Shown here piece after piece: positions 4,808 to 23,443 of a stretch of DNA of 35,459 nt. Origin of the DNA: an uncultured archaeon (GTDB lineage: Archaea; Asgardarchaeota; Thorarchaeia; Thorarchaeales; Thorarchaeaceae); contig CAZPWM010000012.1 of the NCBI GenBank assembly GCA_964590575.1, forward strand, positions 17,993 through 53,451, in the 5' to 3' direction. The translations under genes and the position numbers were made by a program. The notes under the pieces were generated by a model that was given only the letters and a program-made list of their open reading frames with translations, made no database searches and was not told where the DNA came from. Within the stretch, counting starts at the first letter, position 1. Every line of letters starts with the position of its first letter.

Positions 4808-7800
4808 TTATGCCACAATCCTGACAGGCTTCAGGTTCACAATCATGTGCTCACCCTCGACATTGTCGTACTCGACCATTCCCACAAGTTCTCCCTCTGC
4901 TCCAGGCTGCAGCTCAAACTCAATTTGCGCAATTGAAACCGTATCAGGCTCGACAGTTCCAAGACTCTGCGTCTTTATCGCATCAGTCAGGTCTGGTACG
5001 CCCAGTATCACTTGCACGTTCTGCATCGCGTTGTCAGCACCGTTCCGCACTACTACACCGAAGATAACGCGCCCATCACGAATCTTGTACTCAACAGCAA
5101 TGTCCATACCCGGCTCCAGCCCTAGGCTCGCAGGCTCCGCCCGAGTCACGAACTCCCTCGTCATTCGAGCATCACGGAACTTCCTCACGCCAACTGCAGC
5201 AATAAACGCCAGCACCAAGAGTCCCGCAACCTGGAATATCCAGTGCGATGTCGGGAAGAAGTCCTGTCCATCCATGATGCCATCTCCATCACTATCAGGG
5301 TTATTGGGGTCCGTGCCCAGCACCATAATCTCTGTGTAGTCATCAATACCATCTCCATCGCTGTCTGCCAGCAGAGGGTTTGTATGGTATTCATTGACCT
5401 CAGCACCATCAGATAGCATATCCGAGTCCGTGTCATTGTTCATTGGTTGGGTGAGGTACTCTGTAACTTCCAGAAAGTCGCCGAGACCATCTTGGTCACT
5501 GTCTGTTTTGGTTGGGTCAGAATATGGAGTGACGAAAAGCTCCTCATAGTCGCTCAGTCCATCGAAATCTCCGTCCTCTCTTAGCGGGTTTGTGGGGATG
5601 CCCAGCGGGTTCACACCGAAGACCTCATCGTAATCACTTATGTTATCCTCATCAGTGTCTTCGACATTCGGGTTTGTTTCGTATATGATAACTTCCTCGT
5701 AGTCGCTAAGTCCATCAAGGTCGCTATCTGGCAACAAGGGGTCGGTATTATAGAGAAGATACTCTTCTCCGTCCGTCAGCTGGTCAAAATCACTATCCGT
5801 ACCATTGATGTTCGTGCCCAGGAAAATTTCAAGTCCATCTTTGAGATCATCATTATCAAAGTCATCATCGTTGGGTAGTGTGTGGTAAATCCGTAACTCG
5901 TCCCAGTTTGAAAGACCGTCATTGTCACTATCATAGTCTCTATCCAAGGTTGTCCCATACGTCATGTTGGTTGTCGGGTCTGTTCCGGTCAGAATCACTT
6001 CCTCATAGTCACTCAGCCAATCGAGGTCTGTGTCATTCGAGTCCGGCATGGTGCCCCAGTCGTTGACCTCAGGACCATCTTCCAAACCATCAAAATCACT
6101 GTCCTTGTTGAGTGGGTCAGTTCCCCAGTCATCAATCTCTTCGTTGTCATAGAGACCATCATGGTCGCTATCTCTGTTTCTCGGGTCGGTATGGTAAATC
6201 TTGCATTCTTCTCCGTTAGTGATTGTGTCGCCATCCTCATCGTCGTTGTAATCTGATATTCCGTTGTCATTACTGTCAGGGTTTCGTGGGTCCGTCAGGG
6301 TTAGTACACACTCCCAGTAGTTGGTTAGGAGGTCTCTGTCCTCATCATCCGCACCATCGGACTTTCCATCAGAGTCACTATCGAATAGTCGAGGGTTAGT
6401 TTTTGTGAGACGAATCTCCTGCTGATTGGTCAACAGATCTCCATCAATGTCCCAATCCGCATCAGATATCAGATTCCCTTGAGTGCTGTAGAGGGTCGGG
6501 TCCGTGTGCGTCATGTTCACTTCTTCAAAATCTGTAAGGGAGTCTTTGTCTGTATCACTCACTCTAGGGTTAGTGTAGACCCATCTACTAGTAACAACAC
6601 CACTGATGTTGAAGGTCATGTAGAAACCATTGATTTCTTGTCCATCTAGAAGTTTGTCGGAGTCGGTGTCTTCTCGCAATGGCGATGTGTTGTAAATGTT
6701 CAGTTCATCACCATCTCCGATTGAGTCTCCATCTGTATCGTAAAGCAATGGATTAGTTTCGAACACCTTGATCTCATCATAGTCACTGAGATTGTCTGAG
6801 TCCGTGTCTGTGCTGTTCAAGAGCGTGTGCCATGTTAGTGCCTCCTCTGAGTCTTCGAGACCGTCATTATCGCTATCTCTATCGTTGGGGTTGCTTGACC
6901 AGTAGAAGAGTTCATCCCAGTCTCCGAGACCATCCTCATCACTATCGAACATGTTTGGTGAGGTGCCCCAGACAAATATCTCATCGAAATCACTCAGGAA
7001 ATCTGAGTCTGTGTCAATCAGTGTGCAGTTGGTCTCGTAGAGGTATATCTCGTCAGCGTTTGTAAGGCCGTCCGCATCTTGGTCATCTAGGTCGTCAGGG
7101 ATAGAATCTCCATCTGTGTCAACAAGAAGTGGGTTTGTCCCGCTATTGAATAACTCATCCGCATCTGCGAGATTATCTGAGTCTGTGTCATCGTTGATTG
7201 GTGAGGTTCCGTAGATGTTCACCTCGTCGCCATCACTTATTGTGTCAAAGTCAGTGTCCCAGTTCTGCCAGTCTGTGCCGTTCTCGAGTTCCTCTGCATC
7301 GTTAAGTCCATCCTGATCGACATCCGCCTCTGTTGGGTCAGTATTGTAAAGTACCCACTCTTCCCAGTCTGAAAGTGTATCGGAGTCTGTGTCATTTAGC
7401 AATGGGTCAGTACCAATGTCCAACTCAAGCTTGTCACTGAGAAGGTCATCATCTGTGTCGATAGAATTCGGGTTCGTCCCGTATGTGTTCCATTCATCTC
7501 CATCAGATAATGTGTCACCATCACTATCCCATGAGGTGGGTGAAGTGAGCGAGACATACACCTCGAAGTAATCATCGAGACCATCTGAATCACTATCACT
7601 CCCACTTGGGTCTGTGTGATATATCCAGTATTCGAGATAATCGCTGAGCTGATCATTATCACTGTCTTGGTCGGTCGGTGATGTGCCTGACACATATACC
7701 TCGAAACCATCATTTAGACCGTCTAAATCGGTATCCTTCGCAGTAGCGTTTGAGTGGTACCCATAAATCTCAACTGCATTGGTCAGACCATCCCCGTCAT

Positions 7801-10800
7801 TGTCAAGCTGCCCGTCAAGAGTACCATTCATGTTAGTGGATGGTAGCAGAGGGTTAGTGCCTAGGTATTCTATCTCAACAAAGTCATCCAGCTGGTCTCC
7901 ATCAGTGTCCTGAATGTTGATGTCGGTGCCATAGAATAACTCCTCGTTATCTAGGAGTCCATCACCATCACTGTCATTCGATAACGGGTCTGAAAGGTAG
8001 ACGAGTACCTCCATTCCATCTCCGATATTGTCGTTGTCGCTATCAAAATCCCCGGGGTTCGTTTCATAGATGTAAACCTCATCCCCATTTGTCAGCGAAT
8101 CACCATCACTGTCAATCATGTAATCCGTGTGGGTTCCATTATACCACATGTTGTTGGGGTCGGTGAGGGTCTGCTTGATCTCTACCCAGTCAGACAGCAA
8201 GTCTGAATCAGTGTCGTTGTTGAGAGGGTTAGTGAAGTAGTCGTTAATTTCCTCTCCATCCAATAGACCGTCCTCGTCGCAGTCATCATTTAACGGGGAT
8301 GTGCCGTAGACGTACTCCTCAGCATCGTCCAATCCATCGGAATCACTGTCGGCTTCAAATGGTGAGGTCTCGCCAACGTTCACAACACCGTTCGCATTGA
8401 CATCCTCTCCACGTTCTCCGAGAAGCGGTTCATAGATGCCATTGAGGTTTATGTCATTCCACCCATCGTACAATGTGTCTCCGTCGCTGTCCGGATTTGT
8501 AGCATTGAGACCAACATCAATCTCTAGTCCATCTCGGATGCGGTCTCCATCAGTGTCCCAGAGAGTGACATTAGTGTTGTAGGTCCGCAGTTCCTCTATG
8601 TTCGTGAGACCGTCATTGTCTTGGTCATCCTGTCCATCGAGAATGCCATCATCGTCATCATCGTTGTCAGTAGGGTCTGTGTGGGTGTAGTGTACTTCTT
8701 CACCGTCAGTTAATTGATCTAAGTCAGTGTCTGCAGCCAATGGGTCGCAGCCATTCTCCTGTTCCTCTACATTGGTCAGGTCATCGTTGTCCGGGTCCTC
8801 CTCCCCATCGAAGACGCCGTTATCGTTCGTGTCGTTGTAGAGTGGGTCGGTCCCGGTCATCTCGACCTCGAACCAGTTCTCGAGGGAGTCACCATCCTCA
8901 TCGTCATGATAGTCCGATATGAAGTCATTATCTGTGTCACTGTCATTGTGTAGCGTGTGCGTGATGTAGAGCTCGACTCCATTACTCAACCCATCACCGT
9001 CAAAGTCCTCATCATAGTCAGTGATACCATTATCGTTGCTATCCTCATCGTTGGGATCTGTGAGCAGGATTAATACCTCGTCTCCATCTTTTACTTTATC
9101 TCCATCAGTGTCCGGATTTCTAGGATGTGTGAATGTCACATACAACTCTTCATAATTAGTAAGTCTGTCGAGGTCGCTGTCTTCAAGATCATCTGTAAGG
9201 GGCAACCCACCAGAATCTTTCAAAGTAGGATTCGTGCGCGTTAAGTAAATCTCTTGATAGTTAGTGAGAGTATCATTATCATAGTCATAGTTTCCATCCA
9301 AGATCGTAGCATTGAAGGTATGGGGGTTTGTTGCATTCCAGAAGTGTGGAGCACCACGATACTTCACTTCATCTGGGTCGCGAATCAAATCAAAGTCAGA
9401 GTCAACTAGCGTAGCATTTGTTTTATACGTGAAGACCTCCAAGCCATCTCCCAACGTATCCCCGTCTGTGTCACTGTTGGTCACGTTTGTGAAATATACG
9501 TAACATTCTAGATAGTCATTGAGATTATCAAGGTCGGTGTCAGCAGAGTTGGGATCAGATTTCCAGACATTGACTTCCAGTCCATCTGAAATATTATCAG
9601 AATCAGTGTCGTTGTTTAACGGGTCCGTGAAGTAGGTATTGACCTCTGCCCCATCGCTTAACGTGTCATCGTCACTGTCACTATCTAACACACCTGTGCC
9701 ATAAATGACGTATTCGTCATAGTCTGAAAGCCCATCACCATCACCATCAGCCTTGAGTGGATCTGAGTGGACAATCATCACCTCTTCGTAATCCGTTAGT
9801 TTGTCATTATCTGTGTCTTCGTTGAGCGGCGATGTTTTGCTGATCTTCACTTCATACCCATCATTCAAAAGGTCATCATCACTGTCAGGGTCGTATAATC
9901 CAGTCCCGAGCTGAATCTCTTTCCAGTTTGCGAGGTTGTCACCATCTTGGTCATCATAATAGTCTGTTATGGAGTCTCCGTCAGTGTCCACATCATTGGG
10001 ATCTGTCTTGGACTGGCGGACCTCCTGGATGTTCGTGAGTCCATCCCCGTCGTTGTCATCTTGCGCATCATTGATATTATCTCCGTCGCTGTCAGGATCA
10101 GTGGGCAGGGTGAGAGTGACGTTGTTCTCCTCATAGTCAGTAAGCGAGTCTCCGTCAGTGTCTGCCTGATTTGGATTAGTACCGAGGTATATCTCTTGCC
10201 AATCTGTGAGTTTGTCTGAGTCAGTATCGGCTAAGTTGGGGTCAGTGCCATGAGTGATGACCTCTGCAAAGTCAGAGAGTTTGTCGCCATCTGAGTCCGC
10301 TTTGAGAGGGTTTGTTCCATAGGTGAGGACCTCTTGCCCATCACTCAAATTGTCATTGTCGGTGTCAGAGTCATTGTAGAGCGTACCCTCCATGATGATC
10401 TCGCGAGCATCTGCGAGTCCATCTTTGTCAAAGTCTCTACCATAGGTGGACACGGCACCGAAGTTCGTGCCGAAGGCGAACTCATCTCCTCCGAAGTTGT
10501 CGAGGTCGCCAAAAGCCAAAGCACCAGTGAACCCATTAGCAGTGAGCTGGTTGACCCTCCATCCTGTGGAGTTGTACGTCGTGAGAGTGTTGGGAGTTCC
10601 CACGAGCACCTGTGCATTGGTAGTGGCTCCGATATTGGGGAACCGTATATCGTTTGGTACGCCGCCCAACGTCTTGTTCCATGACAACACTCCTACTGAG
10701 GTGTAGACACGAAGTTGATTGGACGCTGTACCAAGCGCGAACTCATACCTCCCACCAGTGACAAGGTCTCCGACGCGAAGGGCAGAGATACTACTAGCGA

Positions 10801-11638
10801 GCTCGAGTTTGAATGCAAGCGTGCCTGTGTCGTACCAGACATTTAGTGTCCCGTTGCTGTTCCCATAGAGCACATCCCAGTTCCCAGCAGTGGTTAGGTC
10901 TCCCATGGCTACGACATTGATTGCAGTGGGACTTGTTTTCTCGAACACCATAGTACCAGTGTCCTGTAAGAGGGTGAACAGTCTTCCCTCAGAGGCCACT
11001 ACTACCTCAGTTCGAGCGTCAGCATCAATGTCTCCCACAGCCAGCAAGCGGACTCTTCCATTGCTCAAATAGCTCCAGAGTGGAGTTGTGTTAATCTCAA
11101 AAGCGTAGACGTAGAAGTCATCACAGCCCACAATGACCTCTTCGAACGCATCGCCATCGAGATTACCCCCAACAACAGCATAGACTGCCTCTGGGAGAGA
11201 CATGTTCATCTGAACCGTCTTATCAGCACCAACTACGAGAATGCCCCGGTCTGTCCCTATGAGCATCTCCTGACCAGTGGCTGCAGTGCCATCGAAGGAG
11301 GTCAGTGCATGTGGTGTCGAGCTAAGTTTCAGTTTCCACAACAATGTGCTATTGTCATCGAACAGGAATAAAGTACCATTGTTCGCAATGACAGCAACCT
11401 CATCTCGCGCATCTGCATCGAAATTATCGACAACAACATCCACAACCTGATTCCCGGTCGTGGTGGACCAAACAAGGGCAATGTCGAATGGTGCGATCTC
11501 AGCGAGAGCGTGTGGAACCTGTTGAACCTGTGGCTTCGTGATTGTCACGGGTTGTATTCCCGTATCTGTCATCTGGAGCTGCAATCCTGCAAGTGCGCAG
11601 ACGACTAGTAGGGCTATGATCACATGATAGGTCTTCAT
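4808..11638 (-). CDS. Giant single-pass cell-surface protein: signal peptide, FG-GAP-type beta-propeller, TSP3-like Ca-binding repeat stalk, TM helix, cytoplasmic beta-sandwich
   Basis: Signal MKTYHVIIALLVVCALAG; blades such as GNLDGDAFEEVIVG, GDIDADARTEVVV, GDLDNFGGDEFAFG; dozens of DxDxDGLxDxxE...TxP units; TM WIFQVAGLLVLAFIAAVGV followed by RKFR; many N-x-S/T sequons; GGAGGA RBS and ATGA overlap with the upstream gene. Confidence 0.9.
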   Translation of the reverse strand: MKTYHVIIALLVVCALAGLQLQMTDTGIQPVTITKPQVQQVPHALAEIAPFDIALVWSTTTGNQVVDVVVDNFDADARDEVAVIANNGTLFLFDDNSTLLWKLKLSSTPHALTSFDGTAATGQEMLIGTDRGILVVGADKTVQMNMSLPEAVYAVVGGNLDGDAFEEVIVGCDDFYVYAFEINTTPLWSYLSNGRVRLLAVGDIDADARTEVVVASEGRLFTLLQDTGTMVFEKTSPTAINVVAMGDLTTAGNWDVLYGNSNGTLNVWYDTGTLAFKLELASSISALRVGDLVTGGRYEFALGTASNQLRVYTSVGVLSWNKTLGGVPNDIRFPNIGATTNAQVLVGTPNTLTTYNSTGWRVNQLTANGFTGALAFGDLDNFGGDEFAFGTNFGAVSTYGRDFDKDGLADAREIIMEGTLYNDSDTDNDNLSDGQEVLTYGTNPLKADSDGDKLSDFAEVITHGTDPNLADTDSDKLTDWQEIYLGTNPNQADTDGDSLTDYEENNVTLTLPTDPDSDGDNINDAQDDNDGDGLTNIQEVRQSKTDPNDVDTDGDSITDYYDDQDGDNLANWKEIQLGTGLYDPDSDDDLLNDGYEVKISKTSPLNEDTDNDKLTDYEEVMIVHSDPLKADGDGDGLSDYDEYVIYGTGVLDSDSDDDTLSDGAEVNTYFTDPLNNDTDSDNISDGLEVNVWKSDPNSADTDLDNLNDYLECYVYFTNVTNSDTDGDTLGDGLEVFTYKTNATLVDSDFDLIRDPDEVKYRGAPHFWNATNPHTFNATILDGNYDYDNDTLTNYQEIYLTRTNPTLKDSGGLPLTDDLEDSDLDRLTNYEELYVTFTHPRNPDTDGDKVKDGDEVLILLTDPNDEDSNDNGITDYDEDFDGDGLSNGVELYITHTLHNDSDTDNDFISDYHDDEDGDSLENWFEVEMTGTDPLYNDTNDNGVFDGEEDPDNDDLTNVEEQENGCDPLAADTDLDQLTDGEEVHYTHTDPTDNDDDDDGILDGQDDQDNDGLTNIEELRTYNTNVTLWDTDGDRIRDGLEIDVGLNATNPDSDGDTLYDGWNDINLNGIYEPLLGERGEDVNANGVVNVGETSPFEADSDSDGLDDAEEYVYGTSPLNDDCDEDGLLDGEEINDYFTNPLNNDTDSDLLSDWVEIKQTLTDPNNMWYNGTHTDYMIDSDGDSLTNGDEVYIYETNPGDFDSDNDNIGDGMEVLVYLSDPLSNDSDGDGLLDNEELFYGTDINIQDTDGDQLDDFVEIEYLGTNPLLPSTNMNGTLDGQLDNDGDGLTNAVEIYGYHSNATAKDTDLDGLNDGFEVYVSGTSPTDQDSDNDQLSDYLEYWIYHTDPSGSDSDSDGLDDYFEVYVSLTSPTSWDSDGDTLSDGDEWNTYGTNPNSIDTDDDLLSDKLELDIGTDPLLNDTDSDTLSDWEEWVLYNTDPTEADVDQDGLNDAEELENGTDWQNWDTDFDTISDGDEVNIYGTSPINDDTDSDNLADADELFNSGTNPLLVDTDGDSIPDDLDDQDADGLTNADEIYLYETNCTLIDTDSDFLSDFDEIFVWGTSPNMFDSDEDGLGDWDELFYWSSNPNDRDSDNDGLEDSEEALTWHTLLNSTDTDSDNLSDYDEIKVFETNPLLYDTDGDSIGDGDELNIYNTSPLREDTDSDKLLDGQEINGFYMTFNISGVVTSRWVYTNPRVSDTDKDSLTDFEEVNMTHTDPTLYSTQGNLISDADWDIDGDLLTNQQEIRLTKTNPRLFDSDSDGKSDGADDEDRDLLTNYWECVLTLTDPRNPDSNDNGISDYNDDEDGDTITNGEECKIYHTDPRNRDSDHDGLYDNEEIDDWGTDPLNKDSDFDGLEDGPEVNDWGTMPDSNDTDLDWLSDYEEVILTGTDPTTNMTYGTTLDRDYDSDNDGLSNWDELRIYHTLPNDDDFDNDDLKDGLEIFLGTNINGTDSDFDQLTDGEEYLLYNTDPLLPDSDLDGLSDYEEVIIYETNPNVEDTDEDNISDYDEVFGVNPLGIPTNPLREDGDFDGLSDYEELFVTPYSDPTKTDSDQDGLGDFLEVTEYLTQPMNNDTDSDMLSDGAEVNEYHTNPLLADSDGDGIDDYTEIMVLGTDPNNPDSDGDGIMDGQDFFPTSHWIFQVAGLLVLAFIAAVGVRKFRDARMTREFVTRAEPASLGLEPGMDIAVEYKIRDGRVIFGVVVRNGADNAMQNVQVILGVPDLTDAIKTQSLGTVEPDTVSIAQIEFELQPGAEGELVGMVEYDNVEGEHMIVNLKPVRIVA
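5260..10435 (-). repeat. Coding degenerate tandem repeats, D(T/S)DxDGLxDxxE(x4-5)T(D/N)P (bacterial thrombospondin type 3-like)
   Basis: Visible in translation over ~1700 aa, as ~22-23 aa units interspersed with ~36 aa units; strongly diverged at DNA level. Confidence 0.9.
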
Positions 11639-12633
11639 GGTGCGGTTCCTCCTATCTCTCTAGGAATTTGCTTCCAAGGTTTCACTTGGAAATAATCAAA
11701 GAAGTCCGCCTCTACAAGACTGACTTCTTCAAATCGTAGTTTCATTTCATTGAATTTCTTAATGATTGGCAGGAGCTGTTCACTGGGATTATCTAAGAAC
11801 AACTTCATTGCATTCCTACCAGCTTGTGCAGTGTATTCGATTCCTGGGAGCGATTCCACCCGTTTGATTATCTCCGGTGTTAAAGCATGGAGAACAACAC
11901 GGATGCTCTCCCCTTTTCCAGGGAGTGTCGAGATCAGTTCCTCTGGAGTCCCGAACTGACTCACATTGCCATCCTCTAAAAGGCACACTCGTGTGCAGTA
12001 ATCTACAATCTCTAGGTCATGGCTGATGATTACCATAGTTGTGCCAAGCTCGTAGTTTAGCTCTTTCAGATAGTTTAGCGTTTCATGTCGAAGATGGGCA
12101 TCGAGCCCTGTGGTTGGCTCATCAAGCAAGAGCACTGGCGGGTCATGTATCATACCAAGGCAGATTGACACCCGCTTACGTTCTCCGCCAGATAGTCTAT
12201 CAACTCTCTTGGTTATTAGTTCTTCATCAAATCCTAGGATTGTGAGGACATTTCTAGCCCGTTCTTCAATCTCCTTGGGCCTGAGACCGAACATGCGTCC
12301 GAAGAACTGAGCGTTCTGAAGAGGGTTGAAATCGTAGTAAAGGCTTAGATGTTCCAGCTGAGGGACATAACCTACGAGAAGACTGATCAGCTTAGCTTTC
12401 TTAGTGACATCATACCCACCAACAAAGGCTTGTCCATCAGTAGGACTAATCTGTCCTGTGAGAACTCGGAGTACAGTCGTCTTTCCAGCTCCTGAGGCTC
12501 CGATGATACCAAGGAACTCTTTCTTATTAGCGAAGAATGATGCTCCTTTCAAGGCGAAGAAATCTCCGAAAGCTACCTTGAGATCTATGATGTCAATCTC
12601 TCGATGGGTTTCCTTGACATCAGATTTTCCCAT
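11635..12633 (-). CDS. ABC transporter ATP-binding protein (DrrA/GldA-like ABC-2 exporter type)
   Basis: Walker A GASGAGKT, Q-loop YVPQ, signature LSGGE, Walker B LLLDEPT, H-loop ISHD, small C-terminal domain. ATG 12633 follows GGAGGTG RBS (track start 12642). Confidence 0.92.
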   Translation of the reverse strand: MGKSDVKETHREIDIIDLKVAFGDFFALKGASFFANKKEFLGIIGASGAGKTTVLRVLTGQISPTDGQAFVGGYDVTKKAKLISLLVGYVPQLEHLSLYYDFNPLQNAQFFGRMFGLRPKEIEERARNVLTILGFDEELITKRVDRLSGGERKRVSICLGMIHDPPVLLLDEPTTGLDAHLRHETLNYLKELNYELGTTMVIISHDLEIVDYCTRVCLLEDGNVSQFGTPEELISTLPGKGESIRVVLHALTPEIIKRVESLPGIEYTAQAGRNAMKLFLDNPSEQLLPIIKKFNEMKLRFEEVSLVEADFFDYFQVKPWKQIPREIGGTAP

Positions 12634-12634
12634 T

Positions 12635-15600
12635 TCACACACCTCCTACCTTGTCGCTTACTCGGTCGAACATCTTACGTCCTTCCTCAATGTCTTGCAT
12701 GAGTACGCGTAGTGCTTCTATCTTCTGTATTCGATCAAGATCTTCTCTTTGTATCAGGTCCTCGAGTTGTGTGAAGGCTGCAAGGAGCGCGCTGAGGGTA
12801 TTGTCTATCTCTCGTACTAACCCAGTATCAATCTCTGGGATTCTGAGACGTTTCCTCATTCTTCTACGATTCCAAACCAGAACCCCAATCAATCCGCCGA
12901 AAATCCCAAAAGATGTGAGAAGTGCTAGTTCTGCCATGGTCAGGAATACAAAGGGTGGGGGCGGAGATATTGTGGGTTCAAGCTCAAACAGGTAGAAAGT
13001 AACACTCGCGTAAGTCATGGCGTATTCCTCATCGCCCAAGACTAGGAAAATACCATTGATTCTACCTTCTTTACTCCAAGCACTGGATGTGAACTGTGAT
13101 GAATAGAGTCCATCTTCTACGAACCCTGCAATGAAAAAGGAAAGACTTCCGTTGGGTAGCTCATATGCAATAGCAACACGCAGGTCGTTGACAGGATTTC
13201 CGTCAATATCTGTTAGCTCTAGATTGACATAGACACTCCGACCTGCCTGATAGTACGAAGTGTTTTCCGAGAGGCTTGTTGCGGTGGTCAGAGTGTTTCG
13301 TAATAGGTACTGGTTCAGATTATCGAGCAACATGCTGTTATTGCATTTTACAAGGTTCTTGTTCATAAAGATCTTAGACGAGCCAAATACTGCTAGCTCA
13401 GGGTCTGTATAGTCCAGTAATATAACACTATTACCATCGAGTCTGGCATTTGCTTTAGACTGGTTGTTCATGACGTAGGTTCCGCCACCAAGCCAGATAC
13501 TCTCCAGTCCGAATCCTAAGCGAGAGGTTGTAACAATTTCTGTAGTATTCTCTTTGCTATGACTCCCATGTAAATAATAACCATACTCCATCAAGAGTGG
13601 ATTGAGTGCTGTGATGTTTGCATTATCATCATTGTCACCTAAAATAACGAGCGTGCCTCCGCCCTCGGAGAATTCCCTGAGAATCTCGATTTCTGTTGAG
13701 TTGTACTCCTTAGTTGGAGCTATGATAAAGACTGTTGAGAATGTTGCAAGTAGGTCTGCATCGAGCTCCATTCCTGGTGTTTCTATGAGGTCGAGTCCCA
13801 CATCTGCCATCCTTTTCTTCATGTTCGAGAGACCTGAGAACGTAGTCATTCTGAATGAGTCAAAGAGGCTTGTAAGTGAGCCAAGACTACCAAGGTCATT
13901 GAGACTAAAGCCAGTCAACATAGCTTCTCCACCGCTAGAACTGTCTTCTTGAGCGAGTGGGAATCCTAAACCTCCAGTATCTCCGCCAGTCAAGGAGCCA
14001 GTATCACCGAAACCTCCAGCACCTCCGAGTAGAGATCCAAACCCACCTCCGTGCGAAGTTTCAAGGAGCATCATTGCGCGTGGATATTCCAGAGTCCTTT
14101 CAAGAGTGATATTGGTTGTCCATCCTACCTCGGTTTCAAGCACATAGTCGCATCTATGATACCCATCCATACCAATTGGGGGTGTCAGTAAAAAGAGTGA
14201 GAAGTCATAGAATCCTTCTATTGTTTTAGCACTAGTAAGAGACATATTGCCCCAATCTGAAGCATTTCCACGATTTGAGATTGTGAGATTACCAAGGGAT
14301 TCGGTGGTTGAAAGAACAAAGCTGTAAATTCCAAAGTCTGCTGGAAATCGGATATCAAATGGTGCGAATGGTAGCTGCTTGGGGAATACCGATGTTGATG
14401 ATATTGGGGTGATAATGAAGACATCTCGTAGCAGAAAATCATCTAAAATCCCTACTCCCGATGTAAGAAGTGATGCCACCGGGTTAGATACAAGATTGAC
14501 GATTTGGTCTAGTCCTGTTGAAACCGCCCATGCTGCAGTTCTTACTCCCTCAGTTTCAGGTCGCCAGTCTGTGATTAGCACTTTAGCTTTGAATGGTTCT
14601 AGCACATCATAAGAGAAATACCTCGCGAACAGGGTACCATCATCAGCAGTACCTTCGACTACTAGCATGGCTCCGATAGCTGTTGTGTTCGCTTCTCCAA
14701 TATTCATGATTACTGCTTTCGATTGATACGTCTGACCAACCTGCGCTATCCTTGGAACATCGGCTTCCACGACTATGAGGTCTCCCTGGTCTAAGGCGCC
14801 GGATGGGACATCATATTTCCACATTGCATCTATTGATGCATCAAGAACCGTGCGGTTCTCACCAAAACCCATGGCTATTGTAACATTAGTAAGTTCATCG
14901 ACATCGAGAGTTCCGAAGTCCCATTGCATTGCTAACCCAACATCGCCATCAAAGACGGTGGACCCTGTTAGGTTATTGTCTGAAACATGACTGCCAATAT
15001 TTGACGAGTTTCCTACTTCAAATGAAGAGAGGGGGATGCTTGAGTTCATACCTACATAGAAGTTGCCATAATTCTCTGAGAGCCCATACGCAAACAGCTG
15101 CTGGTTATCAAGAGCGTACTTTCCGTGATCATTCTCACCATCTAGGTAGAGGTCAAGAGAATATGAAACATACAAGCTCACATTCTCTACAGGCTCGCTA
15201 CCAAGGTTGAGGATGAATGGTGTAATTCTAAATGCAGTCAAAGGAAGTGAATCATACGTAGTGAGATTATAGGCTTCGACCAAGAACGTGACATAGACCG
15301 AGTCATTGTTGGACAGCACGCCAATGTAACGATTGTAAGGTACATTATTTGACGACGATACAACCTGATGAAACTCGCTTTTCACATTAAACATCATCAA
15401 ATTTGTTGGGTCCTCATTATTCCACTTGAGAGAGAACATACCCATCATCAAGTGAATCCCCGAGTCCTGTGGATTACGTGTGTCTATTGCAACAAGTGTT
15501 GTTCCGAAACTACTCATCAACATGGTAGTTGATGCATCTGTGCCGCTAGCAGTGATCAAACCGAGTGCTAGGAGCGGCAAACTTGTTGTTCGCGAGTGTG

Positions 15601-17011
15601 GGTCTGCAGGGGTCTGTTGTGTGCTAAAGTAATCAAATGCTGCTTGCAGATTGAGAAGACCTGCGCCTCCATCATTTGCCCCATACCCAATCGGTGTGGC
15701 TGTGTCACGAAGGACATTGGCTAGAGCGATTGGACTTATTCTATCGAATGCTTGCAGTAAAATTGCTGCGGCACCTGCCGTGATGGCTGCAGAAGCTGCT
15801 GTTGTGTCTGCAATGGTATAATTCTCATCGAATGTTTCACCAATAGAACCCCCAAGAAGACCTCCTAGACCACCAAGGCCACCAAGATCACCTAGTCCGA
15901 TATCACCGAAACCAAGACCTCCAAGACCTGCAAATGGTTTGGCTCCCACAACACCAACACCTGGTGCCACTAGGTCTGGTTTGGTCAATAATGAGAGTGA
16001 TGGTCCTCTTCCTGAGAAATCAGGAATCTCCAGCTGTTCAGTGTCATACGCTCCAACACAAAACGCAGCTGCATTTCCACCGGGAGACATGACAGTCAAA
16101 TAGTCTGGGCCGTCATCTCCTGATGCTGCCACAACAAAAATTCCCTTTTTAGCTGCGATTTCAACTGCCTCTGAGACTGCGTCATCTGGTGCACCAAGAG
16201 TGTTGAAAGGCAATAGAATGATATCTGCACCCCTACTGCTTGCCCACTCTATACCTGAGACAATCCAACTTGGAGATGCAAAGAGCCCTCCAAGGGTCAC
16301 TTTCGCAGAGAGTAGTGTTGCACCAGGAGCAATACCAGCATAGACGCCATCAGATGTATTTCCAGAACTGACTGCAATTGATGCTGCATAGGTTCCATGC
16401 CCAATGAGGTCAAGAGGCAATGTGTCAGCTTCCACAAAGGATGCAAAAGCAGCCACGCTGAAATCTGTTTGAAGTGGGTCCACTCCTGTATCAAGGACTG
16501 CAATAACAGTACCAGTGCCATTGTAACCTGCATCCCAGAGGTCCCTTGCACCAATCCTGTCGATAAGCGGGACATAGTCCTCTGATGACGATGCAGCAGT
16601 GGTAGTGGTCTGTACATGTTCTATTGGTGTTATTTCGTTTGACCATATCTTGGTGATAAACTCCTCTTTGGCAAGGTCTACAATGGCTGAGCTCAGCATC
16701 TTTACATGGAGCATGCCTATCGTTTTGAAAGTTTCAATCATCTTGGCAGTCTGGTCTGCAAAAAGAACAGCATTCTTCGCTTTGAACTCGCCTACCTCAT
16801 CGTCATAACCGATTAGTACGTCACGATACTGATCCAAGTAAGTCTGATTGAGTAGTGAATCATCAATCTTGTCCATGGGGTCAGTTACATGGGGGCTGAT
16901 TCCGATAACAGGTTGAACAACAGAAAGTCCACTAACCATGATGATACATACAAGTATGTATGCTACCACCTTCTGGGTCAGATGCATCATTGTTTGTTTC
17001 AGACCTGCCAT
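12635..17011 (-). CDS. Membrane-anchored S8 subtilase homolog, probably catalytically inactive, with GIFT-like domain and C-terminal TM plus helical tail
   Basis: IAVLDTG (Asp), GHGT (His), FSGRGP, KPDLVAPG present; SGTSMA replaced by DTTAAS; GIFT-like segment FSTVFIIAPTKEYNSTEIEILREFSEGGGTLVILGD; TM LALLTSFGIFGGLIGVLVW then NRRRMRKR. Start 17011 preferred (4 nt after the upstream stop) over track start 17062. Confidence 0.85.
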   Translation of the reverse strand: MAGLKQTMMHLTQKVVAYILVCIIMVSGLSVVQPVIGISPHVTDPMDKIDDSLLNQTYLDQYRDVLIGYDDEVGEFKAKNAVLFADQTAKMIETFKTIGMLHVKMLSSAIVDLAKEEFITKIWSNEITPIEHVQTTTTAASSSEDYVPLIDRIGARDLWDAGYNGTGTVIAVLDTGVDPLQTDFSVAAFASFVEADTLPLDLIGHGTYAASIAVSSGNTSDGVYAGIAPGATLLSAKVTLGGLFASPSWIVSGIEWASSRGADIILLPFNTLGAPDDAVSEAVEIAAKKGIFVVAASGDDGPDYLTVMSPGGNAAAFCVGAYDTEQLEIPDFSGRGPSLSLLTKPDLVAPGVGVVGAKPFAGLGGLGFGDIGLGDLGGLGGLGGLLGGSIGETFDENYTIADTTAASAAITAGAAAILLQAFDRISPIALANVLRDTATPIGYGANDGGAGLLNLQAAFDYFSTQQTPADPHSRTTSLPLLALGLITASGTDASTTMLMSSFGTTLVAIDTRNPQDSGIHLMMGMFSLKWNNEDPTNLMMFNVKSEFHQVVSSSNNVPYNRYIGVLSNNDSVYVTFLVEAYNLTTYDSLPLTAFRITPFILNLGSEPVENVSLYVSYSLDLYLDGENDHGKYALDNQQLFAYGLSENYGNFYVGMNSSIPLSSFEVGNSSNIGSHVSDNNLTGSTVFDGDVGLAMQWDFGTLDVDELTNVTIAMGFGENRTVLDASIDAMWKYDVPSGALDQGDLIVVEADVPRIAQVGQTYQSKAVIMNIGEANTTAIGAMLVVEGTADDGTLFARYFSYDVLEPFKAKVLITDWRPETEGVRTAAWAVSTGLDQIVNLVSNPVASLLTSGVGILDDFLLRDVFIITPISSTSVFPKQLPFAPFDIRFPADFGIYSFVLSTTESLGNLTISNRGNASDWGNMSLTSAKTIEGFYDFSLFLLTPPIGMDGYHRCDYVLETEVGWTTNITLERTLEYPRAMMLLETSHGGGFGSLLGGAGGFGDTGSLTGGDTGGLGFPLAQEDSSSGGEAMLTGFSLNDLGSLGSLTSLFDSFRMTTFSGLSNMKKRMADVGLDLIETPGMELDADLLATFSTVFIIAPTKEYNSTEIEILREFSEGGGTLVILGDNDDNANITALNPLLMEYGYYLHGSHSKENTTEIVTTSRLGFGLESIWLGGGTYVMNNQSKANARLDGNSVILLDYTDPELAVFGSSKIFMNKNLVKCNNSMLLDNLNQYLLRNTLTTATSLSENTSYYQAGRSVYVNLELTDIDGNPVNDLRVAIAYELPNGSLSFFIAGFVEDGLYSSQFTSSAWSKEGRINGIFLVLGDEEYAMTYASVTFYLFELEPTISPPPPFVFLTMAELALLTSFGIFGGLIGVLVWNRRRMRKRLRIPEIDTGLVREIDNTLSALLAAFTQLEDLIQREDLDRIQKIEALRVLMQDIEEGRKMFDRVSDKVGGV

Positions 17012-17015
17012 CGTA

Positions 17016-18695
17016 TCACTTCTCAATTGTACCTTGAATAAGACCTCGAGTAATGGCAACATAGTAGTCTACCATGTCCGCAACCGACTTAGTCTTCACA
17101 ATCTTTACTTTGATGTTTTGCTCCTTCAGAGCAGTGACGCATCTCTCAGCAATCACTTCTAATGGCTCATCTGTGAACATCTTCAGGAGTTCTCCTCTCT
17201 GTAGCACAAAACGAACTCCTTTGACCTGCTCTAGTGTCTTGCGGGCTCTTGGGTCCACCTCTTCAAGCACGACCCCCACAGCAAATCCTCTTGAGGGCAT
17301 CGATTCTTTCAATGTGGCTGGACTTCCAAACGCTACAAGACTCTTACCCCGCATGAACACTGCTACCTTATCACAAAACTCAGCCTCTACGGGATAGTGC
17401 GTAATGACAATTATCGATGTACCATATTCCTGGTTGATATATGAAAGATAACTCCAGAGCTCATACCTGTTGTCAGGGTCAAGCCCTGAAGTTGGCTCAT
17501 CCATGAGGAGAACCTTGGGCTTGTGTGCCAAAGCTATGGCAATAGAAACTCTTCTCTGTTGCCCACCGCTTAGCTCCTTTGTGGGGCTGTTTCCTTTCTC
17601 GAGGACTCCAAAGTCTCTGAGGAGGGTCTTTCCTCTCTGAATCAATTGCCACTCAGGAATGTCATACTGCTTTCCAAATGCGATTATGTTCTCGAGAGGT
17701 GTAAAGGTCTCATACATATATGACAAGTCTTGAGGACAGTATCCAAAGAAGTGACGAACTTTCTGGGTCTGTTTCGAGTCAATTCCGGCAATTCTTGCTA
17801 CGCCAGTACTTGGAATATCGCCAATCAATGCTTTCACGGTCGTTGATTTACCTGCTCCAGACTCGCCGATGATGGCTAGCATCTCACCCTCGCGAATGGA
17901 GAACGAAACATTCTCGATGAGCTTCTGACCGCTTTTGACCGTCACTGTCAGATTTCTGGCTGCGAGCACATCTCTGTATTCAGGAGCTTGTTTCCAGGCA
18001 TAAGGCATTATGTAGACCTTGGTAGCTAAAACAGTGAGGTTTGGATTGTAGCTTGGACCAATTAGAAGCTGCGGCTGTGCAACCATGTAGATTTTGGGAT
18101 CTCCGACCTCTTCCTCTGGAGCAACTCGGACGTCAAGAGTCCCCTCAGGAAGTATGGGAGCTGGTCTTGTAGAAGCACCCACAATCGTACCTTTGATCAT
18201 AATCATAGTCTTGTCAGAGCCTCTGCGGCCCCAAACCGTGCAGGCCACTTCTTGACTCTTCATCTTCTCCAGATCTTTCACTGCTTGTTGGAGGTCACGG
18301 CCATCATAGTATAGGTCGTCTGCCATGTTTCGCTTCAGGTAGTTCTGAACCGTGATTTGTGTGGCTGCTACGTCATCCTGACCTGATCCCTCACCACCTA
18401 TTGTTAGTACCTTATCTAGTTCTCCTGCTCGTTGTCTGCGAAGATCCTCCTCTACATATACTGCGATCCTTCGTGTTAGGACTCCTTTCTTGACCTTCAA
18501 GACTCGACCTTTGAACTTCACTTCCTTACCAGATGAAGTCAACTTACCTTCAACTTCACAGTGTAGCTCACGGGTTTGTCGTGTGATGCACCAATCAATG
18601 GCATCACCTATTCGTGCTCCAGAAAAGTAAGCTTCTTCAACAAAGACTGGTTTCTCCTTTTCAGATGCACCCATTTGGTCTGTTTTTTGAATCAT
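17016..18695 (-). CDS. ABC transporter ATP-binding protein with ~240-aa duplicated N-terminal extension
   Basis: GESGAGKS, YCPQ, LSGGQ, LLMDEPT, ITHY all intact; GGTGA RBS upstream. Confidence 0.92.
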   Translation of the reverse strand: MIQKTDQMGASEKEKPVFVEEAYFSGARIGDAIDWCITRQTRELHCEVEGKLTSSGKEVKFKGRVLKVKKGVLTRRIAVYVEEDLRRQRAGELDKVLTIGGEGSGQDDVAATQITVQNYLKRNMADDLYYDGRDLQQAVKDLEKMKSQEVACTVWGRRGSDKTMIMIKGTIVGASTRPAPILPEGTLDVRVAPEEEVGDPKIYMVAQPQLLIGPSYNPNLTVLATKVYIMPYAWKQAPEYRDVLAARNLTVTVKSGQKLIENVSFSIREGEMLAIIGESGAGKSTTVKALIGDIPSTGVARIAGIDSKQTQKVRHFFGYCPQDLSYMYETFTPLENIIAFGKQYDIPEWQLIQRGKTLLRDFGVLEKGNSPTKELSGGQQRRVSIAIALAHKPKVLLMDEPTSGLDPDNRYELWSYLSYINQEYGTSIIVITHYPVEAEFCDKVAVFMRGKSLVAFGSPATLKESMPSRGFAVGVVLEEVDPRARKTLEQVKGVRFVLQRGELLKMFTDEPLEVIAERCVTALKEQNIKVKIVKTKSVADMVDYYVAITRGLIQGTIEK

Positions 18696-18706
18696 CGTGA
18701 TATCAC

Positions 18707-19885
18707 CTAACCCAGTGTTGGTTTTCTGGAGAATATGAAAGTGGCAGCTAGGATTGCTACAGCTGAGAATCCAAATAATATGAGAACCCTATCTATTACC
18801 TCTAGAATTGAAAGCCCTTTGAATGCTGTGTCTATGAGAAGGTTAAGTCCCTGGTTCATTGGGAGTATTCTATCCAAAACTCCGACATTGAGAAAGAATC
18901 CTGACAGAATTAAGGTTCCAAATAGAACAAAGAGGAACATCTGATTTGCTTGTAATCTCGTGTTTGCAACAGACGAGATCAAAATTCCTGTAGCTGATCC
19001 AGTTAGTGAGCTTAAGCTCATAATTATCACAAGGGATATGAAACTTGTATTGAGTGTGAGATTAAACGCTAGGACCCATAATGTGACCAACAACAACGAC
19101 TGGAAGAACCCAATAATCACATATCCAATTACTTTAGCAACAACGACCTCCAGTCTACTGGTTGGTGTGAGCAGCATTCGACGGAGAGGCGTATCGCCTA
19201 CTATTGATTGAGCTGAAGTCATGGCAATTCCAAGATAGCTTGAGAAAATCACAATGAAACCACCAAACACAGTTACCAAATATCCTCCTTCCGGAGTGAA
19301 CTCAATAACCATACTCGGAAAAATCTCAGAACGAATCCAGAGCTTTGATACTCTAAAAAAGATTGTTCCTGCTTGAATAATTCCCTGAATAGACGCAGAT
19401 CCTAACAGGTTGTTTCCATCATAGTGAACTTCGAGATATGTTGGGAAGTTATCTGTGAGGTTCGCCTCAAAGCCATCAGGAATAACGATGTATGCATCTA
19501 TCAGTTGTTCATACAATGCTCGATATGCATCAGCCGTACTATTGTATATGGTGACATTTGCCATTTCTTCATAAAACGCAGTTAGATTCTCAGAGAGGTC
19601 TTCTGCCCCGTAATATCCACTCGTAGAGTCTAAATCTACAATACCAAGTTTGACACTGCTCTCAGTGGTTGTTACATTATCACCACCACCACCCATGCCT
19701 GTGGATCCGCCAAGAGACATTCCTCCCAAACTACTTGATTCTGTAACATACCAGAGCATACCAATGAGTGCTGCAGGCAACATAAAAATCAGGAGGAGGG
19801 CGACCTTGTCTTTGACTATCAGTCGAAGTTCTTTCATCACCATGTTTCTAATGCGTCTGGATGGTTTTGTCAGAACTTCTGCCAT
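18707..19885 (-). CDS. ABC-2 type transporter permease
   Basis: MVMKELRLIVKD, TM1, extracytoplasmic domain (LGIVDLD, YIVIPDGF), RRMLLTPTSRLEVVVAK, LSGFF, five further TMs. Confidence 0.9.
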   Translation of the reverse strand: MAEVLTKPSRRIRNMVMKELRLIVKDKVALLLIFMLPAALIGMLWYVTESSSLGGMSLGGSTGMGGGGDNVTTTESSVKLGIVDLDSTSGYYGAEDLSENLTAFYEEMANVTIYNSTADAYRALYEQLIDAYIVIPDGFEANLTDNFPTYLEVHYDGNNLLGSASIQGIIQAGTIFFRVSKLWIRSEIFPSMVIEFTPEGGYLVTVFGGFIVIFSSYLGIAMTSAQSIVGDTPLRRMLLTPTSRLEVVVAKVIGYVIIGFFQSLLLVTLWVLAFNLTLNTSFISLVIIMSLSSLTGSATGILISSVANTRLQANQMFLFVLFGTLILSGFFLNVGVLDRILPMNQGLNLLIDTAFKGLSILEVIDRVLILFGFSAVAILAATFIFSRKPTLG

Positions 19886-22549: not shown

Positions 22550-23443
22550 CTAGAGTTCAATACGTAAGGGTTTCTGGTCCTCTCGCCATTGCCATACATC
22601 TAGAGTACATCGAGTTTCTTTTGGAATTCCTTTTAGTTTCAAGCCTGCATAGAGATATGCTCCATCAATGTATCTTCCGTCCTCATTCTTGGGGAGTTTC
22701 TTGATAAACTCAATTGCCGCTGGATCATACTCTCTAGCGACAATTATAGCTCTTGCTGGAAAATACGGTCGGAGTATCATCTCATCCTTCTTCATTGATA
22801 GGACCGCAAAATTGTCTAAAGAATCGATGAAATCAATTATGTGCACACGACCGACTCGTGTATCTGCAACTTTCACGAAACTACAGTTCTCACCAAATTC
22901 CTCCCATGAATCTCCTTGGTCGGTGTCTTTCTTTCTAGGTTCGATCAATAAATCGACTGTTCCCTGTGAACCATCACGTGTCATCAAACTTGGTCTAATT
23001 GATACCTTCCCTTCATACTCTTCCAAAATAAACTCCGAAACTCTGGTTATGAAAGGGTTCTGAATCTTCCTTAGATATTGGTCTGCAACATCTACAAACT
23101 CGGAGTATGCACTGCTTGATACCATAGACAAACCCGCGCTACTTTCCTCGAACTTTCTTCCCAGTTCGTTTGCCAGAGAATATGCCTGATCATATTCTTT
23201 CTTCTTGGGTGAAATTAGGGCTGTGATGATTTTGTCTCTTGGAGCTAGGTAGATTACTTTTTCTTCGGTGGTGAATGATGACAATCCTCCAAATTTCAGT
23301 TCCCGTGAGAAATGACCAATTGCAGAAACAAAACTTGAGAACAGAGAGGGGTCAATTTTTGTCTTCATTCTAGAGAATAGTGGAACACCTGATGCGGCAT
23401 CGAATATGATTATTCCTTCGATATCCAATCGAATTAGCTCCAC
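22550..23443 (-). CDS. Longin/roadblock-like domain protein with C-terminal restriction-endonuclease-like alpha/beta domain
   Basis: IIIFDAASGVPLFSR...DPSLFSSFVSAIGHFSREL...ELGRKFEE is the Asgard longin pattern; GTG start uncertain by a few codons. Confidence 0.75.
   Translation of the reverse strand: MELIRLDIEGIIIFDAASGVPLFSRMKTKIDPSLFSSFVSAIGHFSRELKFGGLSSFTTEEKVIYLAPRDKIITALISPKKKEYDQAYSLANELGRKFEESSAGLSMVSSSAYSEFVDVADQYLRKIQNPFITRVSEFILEEYEGKVSIRPSLMTRDGSQGTVDLLIEPRKKDTDQGDSWEEFGENCSFVKVADTRVGRVHIIDFIDSLDNFAVLSMKKDEMILRPYFPARAIIVAREYDPAAIEFIKKLPKNEDGRYIDGAYLYAGLKLKGIPKETRCTLDVWQWREDQKPLRIEL

Follow-up and report, generated by a model that had tools for sequence, protein, structure and literature searches.

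A DrrA-like ABC ATPase of Asgard archaea carries two tandem N-terminal modules related to the second sugar-binding subdomain of TrmB

The window analysed in this study is a stretch of 35,459 nucleotides from an uncultured archaeon of the Thorarchaeaceae (Asgardarchaeota; assembly GCA_964590575.1, contig CAZPWM010000012.1, positions 17,993 to 53,451), and it encodes on its minus strand an ATP-binding cassette (ABC) ATPase of 559 amino acids (aa) with an unusual N-terminal extension, hereafter called the extended ATPase. The first ~235 residues of this protein consist of two tandem copies of one module, composed of a strand, a helix, and a beta-barrel, and both copies are shown here to be homologous to, and folded like, the second subdomain of the effector-binding domain (EBD) of the transcription factor TrmB. 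The extended ATPase is an ABC ATPase with an accessory domain of a ligand-binding type, which may itself bind a ligand, and it has so far been seen in some Asgard lineages only. An earlier note, made from the sequence alone, had placed two TrmB sugar-binding-subdomain-like modules at positions 17999-18632, corresponding to residues 22-232 of the 559-aa open reading frame (ORF), and this assignment is strongly supported by a Pfam profile, by profile-profile comparison, and by the predicted fold. The gene and its domains are as follows.

17016..18695, minus strand: whole gene for the 559-aa DrrA-like ABC-2 ATPase with N-terminal extension, stop codon included (ORF list and translation)
18330..18647, minus strand: copy 1, TrmB-barrel-like module (aa 17-122) with strand, helix, and five-strand barrel (Pfam, model, structure match)
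18363..18404, minus strand: conserved loop of copy 1 (aa 98-111: T98 I G100 G101 ... D107 D108 V A A) (conservation in relatives)
17991..18329, minus strand: copy 2 of the module (aa 123-235) (HHalign to copy 1, separate model)
17316..17963, minus strand: ABC nucleotide-binding domain (NBD; aa ~245-460) (sequence motifs, Pfam, alignment to the partner ATPase)
17019..17315, minus strand: C-terminal domain (aa ~461-559) common to DrrA-like ABC-2 ATPases (alignments to TIGR01188 and to the partner ATPase)

The linker between the barrel pair and the NBD comprises nine residues (aa 236-244). Homologues of the extended ATPase start in the same way, and their length is nearly always 555-566 aa.

Tandem duplication of the N-terminal module

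The earlier note had proposed an internal duplication, which is borne out both by profile comparison with a shuffle control and by a predicted structure. Copy 1 (aa 16-122) was compared with copy 2 (aa 123-240) using HHalign. With alignments of 37 close homologues (mean column identity 82%), the comparison was no more than suggestive, with a probability of 36% (P 3.7e-4) over 50 columns and the same register as that proposed in the note. After 12 distant relatives (21-40% identical) had been added to the copy alignments, the probability was 98.2-98.5% (E 1.5e-14 to 3.6e-14, 98-102 columns). The signal emerged with the distant relatives because their copy 2 still has the loop motif, which reads ...V-G-G ... 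D-V-x-A-x-K and parallels T-I-G-G ... D-D-V-A-A-T-Q of copy 1. Among 40 column-shuffled copy-2 alignments, the best score was 16.4 (probability 1.5%), compared with the observed 78-80. The two copies share ~17% identity.

An AlphaFold2 model of aa 1-245, built from a 33-row alignment (predicted local distance difference test score [pLDDT] 82.8, predicted template modelling score [pTM] 0.77), shows the same order of strand, helix, and five strands twice. Its elements, with E for strands and H for helices, are E18-25, H26-38, E42-52, E58-70, E75-84, E96-100, and E109-122 in copy 1, and E128-131, H132-144, E150-158, E164-177, E184-191, E201-206, and E221-230 in copy 2. The pTM of 0.77 suggests that the two barrels are fixed relative to each other. 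The N-terminal region is thus shown to be a tandem duplication.

Relationship to the second subdomain of the TrmB effector-binding domain

The Pfam family PF11495 (Regulator_TrmB) matched aa 39-117 of the extended ATPase with positions 162-231 of its 233-position profile (E 3.3e-6, 27.0 bits). The curated gathering cut-off of 22.2 bits is exceeded both by the whole protein and by aa 1-122 scanned alone (24.6 bits). Among the 12 distant relatives scanned, PF11495 was found in seven at E ≤ 0.01, five of them above the cut-off, and in one relative (P0129) the best stretch falls in copy 2 (residues 135-196).

The two-barrel model was also aligned (VIA) to each of 48,161 Protein Data Bank (PDB) representatives, one alignment being shown per chain. 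The top match was TrmB of Pyrococcus furiosus (3qph_A; Z 15.2, root-mean-square deviation [rmsd] 1.7 Å, 93 aligned residues, 22% identity), with residues 18-123 of the model on residues 247-342 of the chain. The second TrmB entry (2f5t_X) followed at Z 14.6, and the next, unrelated entry, Pelota, at Z 7.3. Foldseek gave E 5.9e-6 and 5.3e-5 to the same two TrmB entries (3qph, 2f5t). Because a single alignment was shown per chain, copy 2 was modelled separately (aa 123-245; pLDDT 82.6, pTM 0.73). The copy-2 model matched 2f5t_X best (Z 13.5, rmsd 2.4 Å, 96 aligned residues, chain residues 246-342), followed by 3qph_A (Z 13.4), with the next entry at 6.2; Foldseek matched it to 3qph at E 7.6e-4. 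Sm-like, Pelota-N, and WYL barrels reached Z 5-7 with both copies, and membership of these families was rejected, the Z of 5-7 being read as a common small-barrel arrangement as against Z 13-15 for TrmB. Similarity to TrmB and structural duplication, the two properties on which the note's assignment turned, were therefore both found.

A review of TrmB (PMC4158304) describes residues 246-342 as the second subdomain of the EBD, which folds as a strand, a helix, and a flattened, irregular barrel of seven strands. According to the same review, this subdomain provides six of the seven sugar contacts (Asn305, Gly320, Met321, Val324, Ile325, and Glu326), the remaining one, Ser229, coming from a helix of the first subdomain, which is an eight-stranded sheet with flanking helices, including the sugar-recognition helix with Ser229 (PMC4158304). 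The fold of the second subdomain is present in both copies of the extended ATPase. In the model, the N-terminus opens directly with the barrel module, and too little sequence lies ahead of the barrels or separates them to accommodate the first subdomain. No winged-helix DNA-binding domain of TrmB (PF01978) occurs among the 17 Pfam matches of the protein at E ≤ 0.1. Regulators of the TrmB family bind maltose, sucrose, trehalose, or glucose-type effectors. Each module is thus like TrmB of P. furiosus and Thermococcus litoralis (2F5T, 3QPH; PF11495) in its strand, helix, and flattened barrel, and copy 1 keeps a G-G...acidic loop at the inferred place of Gly320-Glu326. Unlike TrmB, the extended ATPase lacks the winged-helix DNA-binding domain, the coiled coil, and the first EBD subdomain; its barrel is tandemly duplicated and fused to an ABC ATPase, and the protein is not a transcription factor.

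The conserved loop of copy 1 and its state in copy 2

The note had also stated that the GG and the acidic pair are kept in copy 1 and lost from copy 2. This is correct for the protein of the window, in which G100 G101 ... D107 D108 of copy 1 stand against A206 Q207 ... L220 T221 of copy 2. The loop was surveyed in 133 relatives, of which 120 are close (at least 55% identity) and 13 distant (below 55%). T98, G100, and D108, which form a T-x-G...D loop in copy 1, were invariant in 133/133. In copy 2, all 120 close relatives have A/S/T/V-Q and L/M/F-T at the loop positions. Gly at 206 and an acidic residue at 221, each found in none of the close relatives, occur in 9/13 and 8/13 distant relatives, respectively, with P0125 and P0131 among those whose copy 2 has both. 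The loss of the copy-2 loop is thus specific to the lineage of the window, and distant Asgard relatives keep the loop in part.

L005, a full-length TrmB-like protein of 377 aa, is encoded in a different Asgard genome and matches PF11495 over positions 2-230 (E 6.3e-39). Its C-terminal end reads PVGGIRAQYEDVTADRITILD, and the copy-1 profile aligned with its barrel at a probability of 92% (E 6.6e-7, HHalign), setting this stretch without gaps on TIGGEGSGQDDVAATQITVQ of the window. The spacing GG-x5-[E/D]-D-V-x-A is common to copy 1 and L005. The structural alignments end at model residue 123 on chain residue 342 and at model residue 122 on chain residue 341. Considering these end-offsets together with the L005 motif, we tentatively infer that copy 1 has G101 and D107 as its counterparts of Gly320 and Glu326 in TrmB. 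Gly320 and Glu326 are kept in TrmBL1, Tgr, and MalR.

The ATPase core

Pfam ABC_tran (PF00005) matched aa 261-403 of the extended ATPase (E 2.1e-28), and the catalytic motifs are complete: GESGAGKST (Walker A), CPQD (Q-loop), LSGGQ, LLMDEPTSGLD (Walker B with the catalytic Glu), and ITHY (H-loop). The best NCBIfam match was drrA (TIGR01188; aa 259-548 to profile positions 8-300 of 302), at 178.9 bits against a cut-off of 312.45 bits, so the protein resembles this subfamily and is not filed as a member; the GldA model gave 104 bits against a cut-off of 403. The C-terminal 104 aa matched no Pfam family at E ≤ 10, and no TOBE family was among the Pfam matches of the protein. The extended ATPase is 34% identical to a plain ATPase encoded in the same cassette over the NBD and the C-terminal domain (BLASTP).

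ABC ATPases usually bear an aromatic A-loop residue before Walker A. In a gapless extension of the BLASTP alignment, the A-loop position is S254 in the extended ATPase (aa 252-254 at 17934-17942) and F25 in the plain partner (aa 25-27 at 12562-12570). Close relatives of the extended ATPase have no aromatic residue at this position, and five distant extended ATPases have Tyr. The plain partners of two distant loci, L040 and L041, have I and L, respectively. One ATPase of each pair therefore lacks the A-loop aromatic in every lineage looked at, in a small sample and with positions taken at a fixed offset. A single non-canonical site in each pair would agree with an asymmetric heterodimer, and with so small a sample and fixed offsets we regard this as a lead only.

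Distribution of the fusion in Asgard archaea

A word-index search gave 142 proteins at E ≤ 0.001. Sources, lengths, and precomputed domains were read from the best 120 of these 142; the sources were mostly Thorarchaeota, and Odin-, Loki-, Hod-, and Promethearchaeota labels appeared once each. When the 245-residue extension was searched against 1.84 billion cluster representatives, only 17 proteins were found at E ≤ 0.001. Among eight distant clusters looked up, the five with an organism label were all Asgard (Freyarchaeum, Sigynarchaeota, Helarchaeota, and Ranarchaeia). An ESM Atlas search for look-alikes of the module gave one weak row, from a bacterial cluster (score 0.77).

Among 301 sampled genomes of the phylum of the window, the module (245 residues, E ≤ 1e-5) was matched in 106, belonging to seven of 30 families and nearly always as a single copy per genome. 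Module-positive genomes per family were as follows.

f1: 73/76
f2: 1/1
f7: 5/5
f12: 17/19
f19: 6/6
f21: 2/3
f30: 1/1

The same query found none in the remaining 23 families (e.g., f9 0/68, f5 0/28, and f22 0/21). The fusion has thus been found only in Asgard archaea so far.

PF11495 was also scanned against 121 Asgard genomes (G000-G120), a barrel-part match being defined as one from profile position ~133-162 to 230-231. Among the matches listed (24 others lie outside the list), all barrel-part matches except L005 fell in frames of 548-607 aa, representing the extended ATPase, and most other matches covered profile positions 1-140 only. In the genome of the window (3.4 Mb, 91% complete), the extended ATPase is the only barrel match, whereas matches confined to the first subdomain occur at three other places. 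In the Asgard phylum, the TrmB sensor domain thus appears to consist of two halves that are separate evolutionary units. In the same list, L005 was the only match spanning both subdomains, and the first-subdomain-only matches were in proteins of ~250-290 aa or much longer ones.

A stand-alone 162-aa protein of family f21 (L043 1781-2269, minus strand; genome G053) is 31% identical to aa 23-117 of the extended ATPase (E 1.2e-8), with an I-G ... A-D-V-A-A loop akin to that of copy 1 and an Arg-rich tail. This protein carries a single copy of the barrel module, which therefore also exists unfused in another Asgard family.

The note had described the fusion as unknown from described ABC systems. 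This holds for the literature, in that full-text searches, with subscription-only papers outside their scope, found no description of a TrmB-domain ABC ATPase or of its cassette. It holds less well for databases, in which the proteins are present as generic ABC ATPases, and many of the word-index relatives already have precomputed PF00005 and PF11495 matches.

The cassette of the extended ATPase

The extended ATPase is the second gene of a cassette which runs on the minus strand in the order permease, extended ATPase, S8/GIFT protein, plain ATPase, and repeat protein. The other members are as follows.

18707..19885, minus strand: ABC-2 permease, 392 aa (Pfam ABC2_membrane_3, E 1.3e-28; seven hydrophobic peaks)
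12635..17062, minus strand: membrane-anchored S8 subtilase with a GIFT/ABC_transp_aux/DUF4350 (GldG-like) region, 1475 aa (Pfam)
11635..12642, minus strand: plain DrrA-like ABC ATPase, 335 aa, candidate partner (Pfam ABC_tran, E 1.1e-25; canonical motifs)
4808..11638, minus strand: repeat protein, 2276 aa, with TSP3 repeats and a beta-propeller-like N-terminus (Pfam)

The permease gene lies just upstream of the extended ATPase gene, with 11 bases to the ATPase start, and the two adjoin in 9/9 related loci inspected. The S8/GIFT gene was found in 7/9 of these loci. Its product matched Peptidase_S8 (E 2.6e-33), IFT52_GIFT (E 2.5e-8), DUF4350 (E 6.2e-6), and ABC_transp_aux (E 9e-4) in Pfam, and its best NCBIfam match was a mycosin of type VII secretion systems, below the cut-off. 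The 2276-aa repeat protein is the last cassette gene in the lineage of the window and is conserved in L034 and L037; its comparison with orthologues gives highly repetitive internal similarity, and its N-terminus weakly matched BBS2/BBS7 beta-propeller models (E ~2e-7, with scores close to or at the cut-offs). In both giant proteins, a single hydrophobic segment lies close to each terminus.

In L037 (family f1), L034 (f2), and L042 (f12), the permease gene is likewise followed by those for the extended ATPase, the S8/GIFT protein, and the plain ATPase, and three further loci (L035, L036, and L038) end within the S8/GIFT gene. In L040 (f19) and L041 (f7), the extended ATPase, the permease, and the plain ATPase are three adjacent genes; the S8/GIFT gene is divergent next door in L040, and none was seen at L041. 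One permease gene and two different ATPases were thus found in 6/6 loci with enough flanking sequence, namely the window and five others from five Asgard families.

Proposed function of the barrel pair

Considering these results, we propose that the barrel pair is a cytoplasmic ligand sensor gating an ATPase heterodimer, a reading to which we give a probability of roughly 45%. The extended ATPase would be a motor subunit of an Asgard-specific ABC-2 exporter of the DrrA/GldA-like type. At its conserved loop, copy 1 may bind a small ligand, for which a sugar or a sugar-derived metabolite is the likeliest candidate, and copy 2 would be a degenerate partner in the place of the first subdomain of TrmB. 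Occupancy by the ligand might be relayed through the linker (aa 236-244) to the NBD and would switch ATP hydrolysis in a heterodimer of the extended and plain ATPases on a permease dimer. Regulation would thereby take place at the transporter itself, as it does in MalK, ModC, and MetN through regulatory domains at the C-terminus, but here with another fold at the opposite end of the protein. The heterodimer is considered because a plain DrrA-like ATPase and a single permease gene share the cassette in all six loci. Both ligand regulation and heterodimerisation with the plain ATPase, as the note had envisaged, are plausible.

Several of our observations weigh against this proposal. Scanned alone, aa 123-245 (copy 2) matched no Pfam family even at E 10, and the copy-2 profile aligned weakly with the barrel of L005 (probability 15%, P 1.8e-3). 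The first EBD subdomain, and with it the sugar-recognition helix and Ser229, is absent, there being no match to PF11495 positions 1-161. Sequence and profile searches of PDB chains did not reach the TrmB barrel significantly: the 245-aa module gave 6rpp as the best match (E 0.14), a seven-sequence copy-1 profile gave 2f5t at E 1.2 amid ribosomal L3 and FTO noise, and the barrel of L005 gave no TrmB match. Full-length L005 matched 3qph at E 6e-13, with the alignment printed for residues 9-164 only. Within the copy-1 loop, position 101 is variable (G 87, S 40, N 3, and A 3 among the 133 relatives), as is position 107 (acidic E/D 82, Q 46, and other residues 5). The invariant residues are thus the neighbours of the presumed Gly320 and Glu326 equivalents, so a TrmB-like glucosyl pocket is not assured, and the P. 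furiosus numbering itself rests on alignment end-offsets plus a motif in another protein. Furthermore, both ATPases have full catalytic motifs, so a heterodimer is not forced.

The variability of the sugar-contact equivalents also bears on a scaffolding role, in which TrmB-derived barrels without a small-molecule ligand would serve to dock the extended ATPase. It might be docked to the plain partner ATPase, to cytoplasmic tails of the giant S8/GIFT or repeat proteins, or to some other regulator. Copy 2 has no loop in the lineage of the window and is nevertheless highly conserved (Q207, T221, A224, and K226 in 120/120 close relatives), and a constraint other than sugar binding may therefore be argued. 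The resemblance to Sm-like, WYL, and Pelota-N barrels (Z 5-7), folds that often bind macromolecules, and the single membrane spans at both ends of the giant neighbours are consistent with docking as well. However, the only loop invariant in all 133 relatives is the one mapping to the ligand loop of TrmB, and TrmB scores well clear of the Sm-like barrels (Z 13-15 as opposed to 5-7). We consider a pure scaffold unlikely.

Alternatively, the barrels may recognise the substrate of the exporter, binding a cargo on the cytoplasmic side, such as the terminal sugar of a lipid-linked glycan or a glycoconjugate, and selecting it for export. There is a precedent in the ABC-2 ATPase Wzt, whose C-terminal carbohydrate-binding domain recognises capped O-antigen for export, and the extended ATPase is like Wzt in belonging to the ABC-2 exporter ATPases and in carrying an added domain of a sugar-binding type. 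The exporter type of the ATPase and permease, the giant membrane-anchored surface proteins encoded next door, and the family-wide invariance of the copy-1 loop would all suit such a role, as would the contact of the TrmB barrel with the non-reducing glucosyl residue of several sugars, which is described in PMC4158304. The fold and position of the barrels differ from those of the Wzt domain, no glycosyltransferase or polysaccharide synthesis gene was found among the ORFs of the window that were scanned, and the GldG/GIFT accessory protein points rather to a GldAFG-like system. Selection of cargo seems improbable, though the present data fit both cargo binding and allosteric sensing. A chance resemblance, with neither a true duplication nor a relation to TrmB, might be suspected from the ~17% identity of the copies, from the missing Pfam match of copy 2 alone, and from the PDB searches by sequence only that miss TrmB, but is scarcely credible given an HHalign E of 2e-14 against at most 1.5% probability in 40 shuffles, separate models of each copy that rank TrmB first by ~7 Z units, and a copy-1 Pfam match above the curated cut-off.

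Returning to the ligand sensor, its nearest analogues in function, along with the Wzt domain, are found in importers. MalK and ModC have TOBE-type C-terminal domains and MetN a C2 domain, all of them ligand-binding regulatory domains of importer ATPases. The extended ATPase would be like these in having a small beta-rich domain on the NBD, which in our working model could make ATP hydrolysis responsive to a cytoplasmic ligand or regulator. Unlike theirs, which are C-terminal, of other folds, and on importers, its domain is N-terminal, TrmB-derived, and on an ATPase of the ABC-2 exporter type. Compared with DrrA, NodI, and GldA, the NBD and C-terminal domain align best, at full length, with the drrA model; the scores are below the curated cut-offs, and the ~235-aa N-terminal extension has no counterpart. 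The cassette resembles the GldA-GldF-GldG system in its ABC2_membrane_3 permease and in a neighbour with a GldG-type ABC_transp_aux/GIFT region, and differs from it in having two different ATPases and an accessory protein fused to an S8 protease.

Among ABC motors, ligand sensors that form part of the protein are known chiefly in importers, where they are C-terminal domains. If our proposal is true, the extended ATPase would provide an ABC sensor that differs in fold, sits at the opposite terminus, and belongs to an exporter-type ATPase, to date in Asgard archaea only. The extended ATPase also shows that the sugar-contacting half of the TrmB sensor can occur and evolve independently of the remainder of TrmB. 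In a broader and more doubtful hypothesis, the TrmB barrel would be a portable, autonomous metabolite sensor that was duplicated in several Asgard lineages and wired to the motor of an ABC-2 exporter serving giant S8/GIFT surface proteins. A sugar-type signal would gate export post-translationally and not transcriptionally, there would have been two ancestral ligand sites of which one is left in the Thor-type lineage, and the ATPases would form an asymmetric heterodimer. The cassette couples a transporter to a giant protease with a GIFT domain, a domain also found in eukaryotic IFT52, and knowing the switch of the cassette would help to assign a function to this conserved, uncharacterised cell-surface system of Asgard archaea.

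Other genes near the cassette and elsewhere in the genome

A second ABC2_membrane_3 permease of 387 aa, 39% identical to that of the cassette (BLASTP), is encoded on contig 21 of the same genome (L039 8059-9222, plus strand) and is present in all sampled genomes of family f1. No ABC ATPase was found beside it among the neighbouring ORFs of at least 150 aa at E 1e-5, and the locus was therefore rejected as an un-extended sister system.

A 297-aa ORF (22550-23443, minus strand) gave a weak match (E 0.0027, 18.4 bits, cut-off 26.1) to the first longin domain of FUZ/MON1/HPS1, and an orthologue with 45% identity lies near the cassette in L038. A 785-aa ORF (20104-22461, plus strand), which has no Pfam match, is divergent from the cassette, and its orthologues (35-39% identical) occupy the corresponding position in L037 and L038.

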